A stretch of DNA of 63,991 bases, the filler included, from Ionaspis alba (taxonomy: Eukaryota), in NCBI GenBank assembly GCA_964255285.1. It is 11 parts of 11 records of this genome, joined end to end, with 100 filler letters (N's around TTAATTAATTAA, not from the genome) between each part and the next. Parts side by side here need not be neighbours in the genome. Positions count along the whole stretch, not along the records: positions 41,368 to 47,088 come from CAXUUL010000985.1; 10 more parts are not named here. The stretch is one strand, 5' to 3'. Position 1 is the first letter of the stretch. The number at the start of each line of letters is the position of its first letter. The position numbers and the translations under genes are program-made. Under the pieces are notes generated by a model. The model was not told where the DNA came from. It was given only the letters and a program-made list of their open reading frames with translations, and ran no database searches. Below, piece by piece: positions 41,268-46,542 of this stretch.

Positions 41268-41742
41268 NNNNNNNNNNNNNNNNNNNNNNNNNNNNNNNNN
41301 NNNNNNNNNNNTTAATTAATTAANNNNNNNNNNNNNNNNNNNNNNNNNNNNNNNNNNNNNNNNNNNNGGCAGAGCGGACGGGATGCCCAGTTTTCTTGAG
41401 TCTATGGTCGTATGTGATAGATAGTGCTCATATAGTAATTAATCAACGTTTTTGAGTTGAGCTCCACTCCTTGGTTAGCTCCAGGAGGGGTCTCCAATGA
41501 CGCAAGCCCAAAGCGGCACAGAATCAACAAACCTTGGCGACGGCTATTCAAGTTTCAGGAAGGAACTGCTAGTTTATTAGTTTCAAGCTCATTGTAATAG
41601 GCAACAGCAGGCTGTGCCACAACGATCCTTAACCTAACGTTCTCAACTGATGTTTATCTAATCTTTGTACTCTGCAAGTACTATACAATTTCATTTCTCC
41701 CCTAACTATCTGAACCACCATTATCCCTAGAAACCGGTCAGC

Positions 41743-42466
41743 ATGCCCCGCCTTGACGACAGCGGCGAAGCACTCCTCCACGCCGGCCAGGATGCCAGCA
41801 AACGCGCTCGAAAAGCCTGGGATGGCTTTGCGGACTTTGCCCTCCGTGACAATGTGCTAGAGGTAGCTGTTGGTTTGATGTAGGTCCTTCGATCATTCCA
41901 ATCCCTCCAATCATCACCTCTCCAAGGAACGCATTAATTGACCATCTGTCAGCCTTGCAGCAGCCTTCACGACCGTTGTCTCGTCTTTTGTCTCCGATGT
42001 TCTGCTACCGCCTATTTCCCTTCTACCCTTCCTCAGCAAGAACTTGGATCAGAAGTTTGCGGTTTTGAGAGGTGGACCGCTGTATGCAAAAGTGGGATAT
42101 AATACGTTGAAGCAGGCGTCGGATGATGGAGCCGTGGTGATGGCTTATGGGTAAGTGGTCTCCTAGAGAGGATTGGAGACGACGCGTTATTTGTTGATAC
42201 TAACGGACTCCAGGTCTTTCCTTGACAAAGTTCTCAACTTCCTCGGCGTTGGTATTGCGCTCTATATCATTGCCCGTGTCTATGGCTGGGCGTCGGATGA
42301 CTCGATCATCAAGGCTACGGTAAAGTGCAAGTACTGCAGAAAGAGGATTAGTGAGAAGGTAAGTTGGTATTATGGGTCCAGTAAGTCAGGAATAAGCTAA
42401 TGTATGGGTGACAAGGCCAAGCGATGTGTGAACTGTACGAGTTGGCAAGACGGGAGGGATGGATAA
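41743..42466 (+). CDS. MscL-like large-conductance mechanosensitive channel with C-terminal zinc ribbon
   Basis: Four exons read manually: WDGFADFALRDNVLEVAVGLI|LAAAFTTVVSSFVSDVLLPPI (MscL N-helix/TM1), MAYG|SFLDKVLNFLGVGIALYII (TM2), KCKYCRKRISEK|AKRCVNCTSW. Confidence 0.88.
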
Positions 42467-43035
42467 GGCACATTGTGCTACCGCAATAGGGTTCCTGAAT
42501 AAGGAACAAGGAAGAGAATATATTTCAGGATCGATATGCCCGACGAGTCTGGCCAGAGTACCACCACCATCACTGAAACGAGTGGTGCTGAATGAAAGGG
42601 ATTGAGGTCTTCGACTTGAGTATTATTTTACCGTGTCCACTACAGTCGATACACGTATCAAGGTTACAACAATAGCAAATTAAGTTTCGTCTAACTGACA
42701 TGTCAATAACGTGGCATTTTTAATTCTATACATGGAGCCGTGCGTAATAACAGTAAGGATGGTCACCCATGATTAATATTTTGAAGTTATGATGCACGAG
42801 AATTGAAACTAGAATGAATGGTGATACTCGTCTCACCCTAATTGAATCGACTATGAAAAGTTTCATCATATCCTACATCTCACGCCCATGCTCAGTACAT
42901 ATCCAAGGTAGCAAATGACAAAAGATATCATGGAGATAAATCCGAAACGTCGCTACGTAGGAAAGTAATGCCGTCCTTCGTTCCCAGTAATCCCACATCC
43001 ACCATTAAATTCACCTAAGTTCTCGCGATCAATGC

Positions 43036-43623
43036 TCACTTTTTCTTGGTCGGCGGCCTAGACTCAGCACTAATCGATTTCTTTCCTGAGGGCGGAGGAG
43101 CCTTGGCGGGTGCTGCTTTTGGCTTGGGTCCTCCGGGTGCTTTGTAACCAACTGGCTTGCTGCTCGGGACCGAAGCTTGAGGTTTCGCATTGTTGACACG
43201 TCCTACAGCACCAGTTGCTTTCGATTGTGCGCCACCTATGGCACCCTTGCCCAACGTAAGAGCATTTCCAGCAGGCGCCGTGCTAGGGGTCGGTTTCTTG
43301 GCTGCCGGCTTTGCAGTCACAGGTTTGGGTCCGGTGATAGCCCGCTTGCCGCCGGAGGACACATCACTGAGGCCAAGAGGGTTTGATGCCGTGCCTTCTC
43401 TAAGTCCAGGGGCTTTTGTCCAGTCTTTGATCGCGTTGCCATAATCCTTGGTACTGTTGCCGTAGTAACTGATTGTGCTGTCGATACTCCGTCCCACACC
43501 ATTAATTGTGTTTCCAACGCTACTAACAGCTCCGCCGGCAAATCCACCGGCAGTGGCAACCGTGCCGGACACAGCATTGGTGACGTAGTTGGAGATTGCT
43601 CCACTGATCCATTGAGTTGCCAT
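43036..43623 (-). CDS. Small Gly/Ala-rich amphipathic protein with Lys/Pro/Ala tail (ORF2)
   Basis: 195-aa ORF with strong start context ACAATGG and a conserved-looking core GGFAGGAVSSVGNTINGVGRSID..YG...KDYGNAIKDWT...NPLGL. Confidence 0.75.
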   Translation of the reverse strand: MATQWISGAISNYVTNAVSGTVATAGGFAGGAVSSVGNTINGVGRSIDSTISYYGNSTKDYGNAIKDWTKAPGLREGTASNPLGLSDVSSGGKRAITGPKPVTAKPAAKKPTPSTAPAGNALTLGKGAIGGAQSKATGAVGRVNNAKPQASVPSSKPVGYKAPGGPKPKAAPAKAPPPSGKKSISAESRPPTKKK

Positions 43624-43651
43624 TGTATTGGTTTTAGGGGCGACTCAGTGA

Positions 43652-44011
43652 TCAAGCTTTGGGAGCTGCAGGAACCTTAGGTTTAGGGGCTGAAGTGGGC
43701 TTGGGAGTGTTGAGCTTGGGAGCTGGCTTTTTTGCTGCGGCGGGAGTAGCTTTGTCGGCTGCCTTCGTTGCAGGTTTGGCACTGGAAGCTTCTGGCTCGT
43801 CGTCTGGAAGCTCTATAACCTTGGGTGCGGCTCTGAGTTTGGGTGCAGGTCGAGGATTGGTTTTGGTTGGGGCGGGGAGTTCCTTTGGTGGGAGCTTTGG
43901 AGCTGTCCTTGTCTTCCAGGCAGGCTTGACTTTGGGAGCTCCTTGGGATCGGGTTGCAGTGACGTTGATAAAGTCTTGGTCGAAGAAAATGTCAAAATTG
44001 ATGTTAGGCAT
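43652..44011 (-). CDS. Small Lys/Pro/Ala-rich protein (ORF1)
   Basis: 119-aa ORF: MPNINFDIFFDQDFINVTA followed by repeated APKL/KPAPK motifs; preceded by a CT-rich promoter-like tract at about 44060-44105. Confidence 0.6.
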   Translation of the reverse strand: MPNINFDIFFDQDFINVTATRSQGAPKVKPAWKTRTAPKLPPKELPAPTKTNPRPAPKLRAAPKVIELPDDEPEASSAKPATKAADKATPAAAKKPAPKLNTPKPTSAPKPKVPAAPKA

Positions 44012-44549
44012 TTGGAAGAGCTGTGTGCATGAGGATGTACTCGTGTATAGATTGTTACTTAGGGAAAGAGAAGTGAGAGGTTGAGAGAAAAGTGGCGGAG
44101 GGAAGAGCTAATAAGGCAATTAGGCGCGTGTCCGACGTCATAGCGTAGTGCTGCTCTCTCTGCTGCCAACTTTTCGCAAAGCAAGGAAAGCCGTCTGTGG
44201 CGCAAGAGTCGGAGGCAACCTCTAAACTCGATACGTCAAATTCTGCAATCCGGCAACCTACAGAAACGCATCATGATCGACCATTGGCTCGCGTCACCTC
44301 CGAGCGACGATCGATGTCTTCATTTGTGATGAGAATTCCCAGGATATCAGCTCCACAGCCATTACAGCGGACCCCTATCGTGTATCATCCCTCCCGACCT
44401 TTCTAGCTTTATGACGAATTGAGCTTCTACCACTTCATGTCTTGCAAACACCGAAAGTTGTCATAATCTCATTTTTTGAGCGTAGACCATGAGCTTTTTG
44501 TGTACTTCAAATTCTGAGAAATTTCTTGCCTGAAGGCTGAGACACAGTC

Positions 44550-46542
44550 ATGGATGCCATAACGAAGTACCGGCCAGACCTTGGTGCTGGCATTTATTTC
44601 TTGTCTGGTTGTATGGCGTAAGAACTTCCACCCTGTGCTCTTTAGTATCATGAATGTCGAAACCTGACAGTTCTATGACTTCTACAGAATCAATGCATCA
44701 CAATTTATCGGAACCCCGTTATATCTCCTCAATAGCGACTGGTACAACGCATGGATAGCTTTCACGAAGCAGTCGTTTGGTCTCTTGACTACGACTATGA
44801 CACAATTCTGGGCTCCCACTCTTGTCCGAGTCAGTGGAGACAGCAGTGTTCGTGGACAGCTATTGCAGAAAGCAAATGGAGACTTGTTCTGCAATTTTCC
44901 ACAAAGGACCGTCCTGATCGCGAACCACCAAGTACGTCGGGACCAGTTATAACAAGGACCATACGCTGATGACATGGATATAGATCTACACCGATTGGCT
45001 GTATATGTGGTGGATAGGGTACACTGCGGGCATGCATGGCCATTTCTATATCATCCTGAAAGAGTCCTTGAAACGCATCCCAGTCATCGGGTGGGGCATG
45101 CAATTCTCTAAATTCATATTTCTGAAGCGAAATTGGGAGAAGGACAAAGCAAACTTGCAACAGCACATGCAAAAGCTTAATGTTCCAGGCGACCCGATGT
45201 GGTTATTGCTATTTCCCGAAGGTACAAATCTTGCTCCCAGTACCCGAGAATCTAGTGCGAAGTGGGCAGAAAAGAATGGCCTGCAAGATATGAAACATCA
45301 ACTGCTGCCACGAAGTACCGGCCTTCGATTCATTTTGCAGGAGCTGAGGACGACAGTGAAATATGTCTACGATTGCACTATTGCCTACGAAGGCGTACGG
45401 TACGCAACAATCTATCATTTCCAGCAAGGATGGTCATACTGACTTTACTTAGCCATGGAGAATACGCCCAGGACATCTTCACTTTACAGACAATGTACGT
45501 CGATGGCAGTCCACCGAAGTCCGTCAACATGTTCTGGAGGCGATTTGCCATTTCCAAGATACCCTTAGATGACCCTCAACAATTCGAGCTCTGGCTTCGA
45601 GCTCGGTGGGCTGAGAAAGACAGGATTCTTGACCGTTACCTACGGACAGGACGGTTTCCGGCCGATGATGGTGTGACGGTGACACCACAAGGAAAGACCC
45701 TGCGCGGAGCGGGATACATTGAGACTGAGATCAAAGCTTCTCGCTGGTACGAATTTCTACAAGTCTTTGCTCCCATCGGTCTCTTTGCTCTGGTGCTGTA
45801 CATGTTCTACGGTGCCCTCCCCAAAAATCTCGTTAAAAATATCAATGACAAGGGCATCATCAACACGGCCCAAAGCATTCCTGGCTTTAGGGTCTCAGGC
45901 CGGGAGCAGCAGATGATCAAGAATGCTGCCAGTAATGCAACCCCTAAAGCACTGTACAAGGCTGTCACTACGAGAGACCCAGCACATCTGACTGGCACGG
46001 TCCAGAAGACTCCCTTCAAACCTATGACCGGCCAGAAAGTTATACTCCGTGGAGCACCAGCTCGGCAAGCTCATGCTGAGATAGCTCAAAAGCAGAAACA
46101 GCTGAAGACGACGAAACAACAAGCCTTTGCTGCACCCAAGAAAGCTGCCCCTATCCCCGTGGCTAAAGCTATACCGAAAAAGGTTGCCACGAAGCCGGCG
46201 GTAAAACCTGCTCCAAAGAAGCTGGAGATCAGAGATACGGCTAGTATCACATCGTCTAGTCAAGGGAGCAAAGTCTCGGCGTCCACGGCGCCGACGCAGA
46301 TAAGTAAGGCTTCCACAAACCCAGCGCCGAAGAATCCGACAGCAGCGAAAGCTCAACAGGCTGCAGCTCCCAAGAAGCCGGCGGTAAAGGCGGCCAATGG
46401 CGCCGCAGCAAAGAAACCGAATGCGGTCTCCGCTACGAAACCGGCCGCGCAACCAAAGCAAGTACCGGGGAATCTCAAGCCTACTGTGCAGAAAGCAGCA
46501 GCCAAGCCGGCAGCGACGAAGAAATTGGAGGTGAAAAGTTGA
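44550..46542 (+). CDS. PlsC-family lysophospholipid acyltransferase (Cst26/LCLAT1-like) with long Lys/Pro/Ala-rich C-terminal extension
   Basis: Catalytic ANHQ|IYTDW (HX4D), LKESLKRIPVIGWGMQF, FPEGT, LLPRSTGL, VYDCTIAY; three introns. Confidence 0.9.

Follow-up and report, generated by a model that had tools for sequence, protein, structure and literature searches.

A conserved pair of tandem ORFs in filamentous ascomycetes carries the signature of a leaky-scanning bicistronic locus

Features that allow leaky scanning have been described in bicistronic loci of green algae, where they were also tested by mutation (PMC11291117; PMC7896298). Polycistronic mRNAs are held to be uncommon in ascomycetes. 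Those reported from filamentous species stem from genes that are also transcribed alone (10.1101/2021.11.08.467853; 10.1101/2023.04.26.537486), and may or may not be functional. A purine at position -3 is a hallmark of fungal start contexts, and leaky scanning past weak AUGs is reported to be extensive in Neurospora (PMC7049704). Our literature search, which ran largely outside subscription journals, returned no report of the ORF pair analysed here, nor of a conserved leaky-scanning bicistron in filamentous ascomycetes. We consider it likely, with a probability of roughly 0.8, that a single mRNA would serve both ORFs of this pair, ORF2 being reached by leaky scanning. The mechanism is already known; what would be new is a conserved and apparently dedicated case in filamentous ascomycetes.

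The window, the whole stretch of 63,991 nucleotides that was analysed, consists of fungal contigs of Ionaspis alba joined end to end, and the locus lies on the minus strand of CAXUUL010000985.1 (G000:C985). The preliminary description had placed two ORFs there, close together and in different frames, and its coordinates all hold (Table 1), ORF2 being in frame +1. The in-frame TGA that it reported before ORF2 is present 21 nt upstream of the ORF2 ATG, the 385 nt between the two start codons are free of ATG in the window as it had stated, and the weak and strong contexts that it assigned to the two starts were both seen. When 43000-44200 was scanned in 40-nt windows for a C+T content of at least 75%, only the tract at about 44120-44060 was recovered, in keeping with the claim of a sole CT-rich tract upstream of ORF1. 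In the deeper of two sequencing runs, contigs showed substitutions and zero indels in ORF1, ORF2 and the spacer; genes and intergenic DNA were covered alike, and the run is therefore uninformative about expression. Contigs C92 and C985 of the assembly (window 44557 onward) overlap by about 2.1 kb with a few substitutions between them; this overlap and the many substitutions in run X1 suggest that two strains or haplotypes are present in the assembly.

Table 1. Coordinates of the features of the locus, counted along the window
Feature	Position	Strand	Description
ORF1	44011-43652 (43652..44011)	-	119 aa; start context ttccaaATGC, C at -3
ORF2	43623-43036 (43036..43623)	-	195 aa; start context aatacaATGG, A at -3, G at +4
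AUG-free spacer	43624..43651	-	28 nt; carries a stop in the ORF2 frame
uORF (MHTALPNA*)	44030-44004	-	8 codons; weak context (C at -3); overlaps ORF1 start out of frame
Pyrimidine-rich tract	44060..44120	-	at least 75% C+T
Acyltransferase gene	44550..46542	+	PF01553 + PF16076; intron-containing; 230-aa basic tail

A metagenome scan gave 30 related loci, four of which end too early, and ORF2 follows ORF1 in all 26 informative ones. In Lignoscripta the two ORFs carry consecutive locus tags (MMC24_002623 and 002622). Across the 26 loci the spacers measure -1 nt, a TAATG overlap (four loci), 2 nt (six), 3 nt (two), 12 nt (nine), and 23, 29, 69, 77 and 110 nt (one each). The tandem order and close spacing expected of relatives were thereby borne out. 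The length of the spacer is not conserved (-1 to 110 nt, 28 nt in the window), and the relative frame of ORF2 varies, being 0 and +2 in related loci and +1 in the window.

These loci also bear on whether ORF1 and ORF2 could be parts of a single gene, connected through splicing, readthrough or frameshifting, which we regard as highly improbable. Two NCBI gene models do fuse the pair, one of 312 aa from Exophiala spinifera and one of 360 aa from Fonsecaea multimorphosa; they enter ORF2 at nearly the same place, and the two halves have similar tails. Because the two models exit ORF1 at different points and remove the conserved MATxW start of ORF2, we read them as prediction artefacts. No canonical in-frame fusing intron, with strong donor and branch site, was found in any of 25 loci, and the earlier view that a convincing intron and a fused protein are lacking stands: there is no conserved route to fusion. 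The variation in relative frame over all three values and the retention by ORF2 of a conserved Met1 in strong context also argue against one gene, as does, more weakly, a search for proteins of 337-2000 aa that gave a single match.

Each of the ORFs codes for a protein, and their tandem arrangement is conserved. ORF1 had 111 homologues in a sequence search, and a profile search gave 36 cluster representatives. Its named relatives include proteins from Pycnora (Candelariomycetes), Lignoscripta (Lecanoromycetes) and Watsoniomyces (Lichinomycetes), and in Exophiala (Eurotiomycetes) it sits within the fused gene model. The named relatives thus span four ascomycete classes, and the carriers are lichen-forming and black fungi. 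Conservation is strong over the first 43 or so residues, and Met1 and Pro2 do not vary among 69 aligned proteins; this invariance excludes a 5' intron deleting the ORF1 AUG, for which look-alike sites (GTACAT/CTAAC) exist near 44040-43975. The N-terminus is predicted to form a beta-hairpin at residues 5-20, followed by a basic Pro-rich motif, in a low-confidence model (pTM 0.16). The tail is variable and K/P/A-rich, the pI is 10.2, and the total length ranges from 93 to 180 aa across relatives. The dN/dS ratio was 0.06-0.28 in 13 of 14 computable pairs and 0.94 in the remaining one (L010/L012), one further pair being saturated; over codons 1-43 it was 0-0.20. Since ORF1 has homologues, a conserved N-terminus and a dN/dS below 1, as the preliminary description had anticipated for a coding sequence, it is not merely a 5' UTR. 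Searches of Pfam, PDB, Foldseek and the Atlas returned no usable family or fold for it. The ORF1 gene calls P0191, P0194 and P0195 are truncated, with breaks near the conserved Trp motif, a hint that ORF1 contains an intron in some lineages. P0185-P0193 are divergent ORF1-like proteins, likewise without internal Met, and may represent a second ORF1 subfamily.

A coding ORF1 could still be a long uORF with a conserved peptide whose sole action is in cis, where it would adjust ORF2 by slowing ribosomes, with no role for its product. Its layout and the purge of AUGs described below would be the same for a leaky uORF, the conserved PKLPPK motif could slow elongation, and ORF1 is without a Pfam, PDB or Atlas match. 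We give this explanation little credence. Stalling peptides usually lie at a fixed distance from the stop codon, and in ORF1 the conservation is N-terminal, in the predicted hairpin, with a tail of variable length. In addition, the PP pair is not invariant and the dN/dS below 1 spans the whole ORF.

For ORF2, 63 homologues were found in a sequence search, Exophiala viscosa being one of the carriers. Its head (about residues 1-85) is Gly/Ala-rich, amphipathic and helical, with a hydrophobic moment that peaks at 100 degrees, and ends in NPLGL; the K/P/A-rich tail follows, and the pI is 10.4. A structural model places a helix at 29-69, with a pLDDT of about 80 over residues 51-90 and an overall pTM of 0.34. 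None of 49 aligned members matched Pfam, there was no PDB sequence match, and neither Foldseek nor the Atlas assigned a usable family or fold. The head may resemble perilipin/LEA-like amphipathic lipid-binding proteins in its long, predicted Gly/Ala-rich amphipathic helix. It has no sequence or profile match to them (Pfam 0/49, PDB none). Both proteins of the pair are basic, with low-complexity K/P/A tails. A stand-alone paralogue of the ORF2 head (86 aa; L002 1528-1785, minus strand, G000:C272) has 56% identity over 79 aa, no ORF1 upstream, a strong start context and almost no tail.

The absence of ATG between the two starts had been presented with the caveat that the coding strand is T-poor. 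In the window alone, an ATG-free stretch of 385 nt has a P of about 0.15 when dinucleotides are shuffled or when synonymous codons are resampled at the frequencies of the locus, and of 0.06 under host codon usage; the 385 nt upstream of the stand-alone ORF2 paralogue are also free of ATG. The gap is within chance for this one locus and is highly significant only across orthologous loci. These loci share ancestry and their summed P values overstate independence, although dS exceeded 1 or was saturated in the seven most distant pairs tested.

Over 25 complete loci, the window included, a single ATG occurs in the 9,258 nt between the two starts; one relative (L009) carries an out-of-frame ATG in ORF1. 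We selected 13 representative loci with less than 80% DNA identity and a median ORF1 protein identity of 44%. In these, ORF1 has no out-of-frame ATG against 19.9 expected by synonymous resampling, and ORF1 plus spacer has none against 24.0 expected by dinucleotide shuffle. Under the strictest null, in which the codons of each ORF1 were shuffled among themselves, 8.9 were expected and zero was reached in 0 of 1,000 shuffles. The depletion looked for in relatives was thus found in 13 diverged loci, with 0 ATGs against 9-24 expected. ORF2 shows no such deficit (83 out-of-frame ATGs against 61.6-73.4 expected in the 13 loci). Among the 64 triplets ATG is the most depleted in ORF1 (0 vs 51.7), the corresponding values in ORF2 being 113 vs 115.8.

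The same avoidance was observed in codon choice. Before a G-starting codon, where a final T would give rise to an ATG, the Asn, Asp, His and Tyr codons of ORF1 end in T in 0 of 46 cases, compared with 27 of 116 when the next codon starts with another base (P = 8e-5); in ORF2, 77 of 127 such codons before a G-starting codon end in T. The bias in ORF1 holds separately in codons 1-45 (0/17 vs 16/59, P = 0.016) and from codon 46 onward. Internal methionine is likewise absent from 15,124 residues of 130 ORF1 proteins (the 111 homologues and 19 of 21 new profile-search sequences, two without a start being left out) and occurs 152 times in 13,606 residues of 62 ORF2 proteins, the fused model being left out; the similar tails of ORF2 alone hold 100 in 8,417 residues. 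As a control for the T-poor coding strand, the acyltransferase tail of the window, which matches it in T content (0.14 vs 0.15), contains 7 ATGs in 693 nt. Elsewhere in the window, none of 189 windows of 385 nt in 21 other long ORFs was free of ATG, and in the other ORFs the out-of-frame ATGs numbered 255, with 242 expected. For near-cognate starts in good context the count was 8, compared with 13.8 expected. Compared with synonymous shuffles, ORF1 gave no consistent signal of selection on RNA structure (z -2.0 to +1.6 in 13 loci). Its sequence is rich in A and C, and in 13/13 loci its predicted folding is weaker than that of the ORF2 head.

The two start contexts are consistently asymmetric. 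Of 30 loci, 28 carry C at -3 of the ORF1 start and two (L031 and L032) carry G, and ORF2 has a purine at -3 in 26/26. As controls, a purine was observed at -3 in 15 of 17 window ORF starts, which were chosen by eye, and in 10/10 acyltransferase starts, which were found among 11 loci tried. The bases at +4 follow from the amino acids encoded there and cannot serve as independent evidence. The 8-codon uORF that had been described as overlapping the ORF1 start is present and does not belong to the conserved design: in the other 24 complete loci, the 60 nt that precede ORF1 are free of ATG. As it is seen only in the window, we rule it out as a conserved element, and its effect would at most be to tilt the ratio toward ORF2.

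We next considered whether the pair is likely to lie on one transcript. The pyrimidine tract is probably the core promoter or transcription-start region of a shared mRNA. Eight of 23 contigs with a 5' end of their own begin 50-89 nt upstream of ORF1, compared with 0.57 expected by a naive model, the library type being unspecified; this count left out six flank-capped loci and one 5'-truncated locus. All eight cross both ORFs and stop 37-617 nt beyond ORF2. They have the shape that one mRNA would have, but a contig over two genes does not prove one molecule. With some 800 nt beyond the ORF1 stop codon, such an mRNA might be a target of nonsense-mediated decay, which counts against a single mRNA. 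Some of the eight contigs come with a common dataset prefix, and overlapping RNAs can become joined during assembly, a point made for Z. tritici (10.1101/2023.04.26.537486).

Two transcripts could also account for the pair if the promoter of ORF2 lay inside ORF1, the distal part of ORF1 then serving as the AUG-free 5' leader of ORF2. There is precedent in the published polycistronic loci of F. graminearum and Z. tritici, which are also independently transcribed. This arrangement appears improbable to us, if marginally less so than an ORF1 acting only in cis, since the purge of AUGs covers codons 1-45 as well, the conserved weak context of ORF1 would be left unexplained, and in the window no pyrimidine tract is present inside ORF1. 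The mRNA of ORF1 would, moreover, need to end within ORF2, as 12 of the 26 loci have spacers of only -1 to 3 nt.

On one mRNA, ORF2 could in principle be reached mainly by termination-reinitiation after ORF1, in the manner of viral UAAUG stop-start sites. The TAATG overlap in four of the 26 loci and the 2-3 nt spacers in eight more are compatible with such coupling, and the fungal virus CHV1 uses UAAUG coupling (PMC2699510; PMC10275272). The cited limit for TURBS-type sites, a stop and start within about 30 nt of each other (PMC10275272), holds in 23/26 loci and is exceeded by the spacers of 69, 77 and 110 nt. The weak first AUG and the lack of AUGs within ORF1 are not needed for reinitiation. 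The upstream 18S-complementary motif of TURBS has the core TGGGA, and both this core and any shared non-coding 6-mer are absent near the ORF1 stop in 13/13 representatives, although elements of another type may be present. Reinitiation may contribute where the spacer is tiny; as the main route to ORF2 we hold it to be about as improbable as the purely cis-acting ORF1. The preliminary description had left leaky scanning and reinitiation side by side. The signature itself is supported, and of the two routes leaky scanning is favoured over termination-reinitiation, because it is the only model that predicts a weak first AUG together with a purge of the whole of ORF1 and indifference to spacer and frame.

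Under leaky scanning, a promoter upstream of ORF1 would give a capped mRNA of about 1.1-1.5 kb with a short leader and both ORFs. Part of the scanning 43S complexes would initiate at the weak ORF1 AUG with its C at -3 and produce protein 1. The remaining complexes would pass this AUG, encounter no further one, whatever the frame, along ORF1 and the spacer, and initiate at the strong ORF2 AUG to produce protein 2. The two proteins would then be co-produced in a ratio set by the context of ORF1, and in Ionaspis alba the extra uORF may send more ribosomes past ORF1 to ORF2. We infer the single mRNA, the translation of both ORFs from it, the scanning step and the role of the uORF from sequence features.

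The gene next to ORF1 may offer a clue to function. A divergent acyltransferase gene (PF01553 + PF16076), head-to-head with ORF1 and with a start at 44550 that is assigned by homology, neighbours the pair in 14/14 loci with more than 900 nt upstream, and its start lies 427-796 nt from ORF1 in 10 loci. Its tail measures 230-340 aa over the loci and in relatives holds repeated G(T/N)FW-type motifs; the other close acyltransferase copy of the genome (G000:C46) is without a tail. Downstream neighbours vary, with an MscL-like gene in the window and an epoxide hydrolase in several relatives. The MscL-like gene (window about 41740-42400, plus strand) contains an intron, is convergent with ORF2 and has a Pfam E of 5e-5, below the cut-off; no match to it was seen among the related-locus matches listed.

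It is tempting to speculate that protein 2 attaches to a lipid surface by its amphipathic helix and that the pair is co-regulated with the acyltransferase as a small membrane or lipid-droplet module. We hold this to be doubtful, and plain synteny would explain the acyltransferase neighbour as well. Slightly less doubtful, and still unlikely as a whole, is a broader scenario in which the locus would encode an ancient and obligate two-protein mRNA, present in at least four classes, kept under near-total selection against AUG and yielding undescribed basic proteins in a fixed ratio. In that scenario a bidirectional promoter would be shared with the tailed acyltransferase, the trio might work in lichen-forming and black fungi as a module at membranes or lipid droplets, and annotation would routinely fuse the pair or miss half of it.

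Evolution has left on the pair a strong signature of a functional bicistron, which makes it a direct test case for filamentous ascomycetes. The signature, a Met-free conserved ORF with C at -3 and a tightly following downstream ORF, lends itself to screens of any fungal genome for more hidden bicistrons. It exposes an annotation blind spot, with at least two public models fusing the pair, and the pair may give a native route to two proteins from one fungal mRNA.

Compared with the described systems, the pair is most readily set beside the green-algal bicistrons (PMC11291117; PMC7896298), with which it shares two independent ORFs, a short spacer that includes stop-start overlaps, a frame relation that varies, an ORF1 start in weak context, a short leader, a scarcity of AUGs before ORF2 and conservation across species. 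It differs in its fungal lineage and in proteins without a family match, and co-transcription and translation were demonstrated experimentally in the algae, whereas for the fungal pair they are deduced from sequence. The UAAUG sites of CHV1 and TURBS (PMC10275272; PMC2699510) resemble the TAATG overlap of 4/26 loci; here, in contrast, spacers reach 110 nt and no upstream motif is shared, and the weak first AUG and the purge are not required there. Bicistronic transcripts of budding yeast (PMC8573964) likewise have short spacers and two ORFs, with one mRNA being presumed in our case, but their genes are described as young and the second as less translated, while the present pair has relatives in four classes and is apparently built to feed ORF2. 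The polycistronic RNAs of F. graminearum and Z. tritici (10.1101/2021.11.08.467853; 10.1101/2023.04.26.537486) also join adjacent same-strand ORFs, on what would be one RNA here too. Their genes are transcribed singly as well, and the joined RNAs of Z. tritici are of low abundance and possibly read-through. The accessible parts of these accounts report no translational mechanism or cross-class conservation, whereas the pair described here shows selection at the coding level for downstream initiation.
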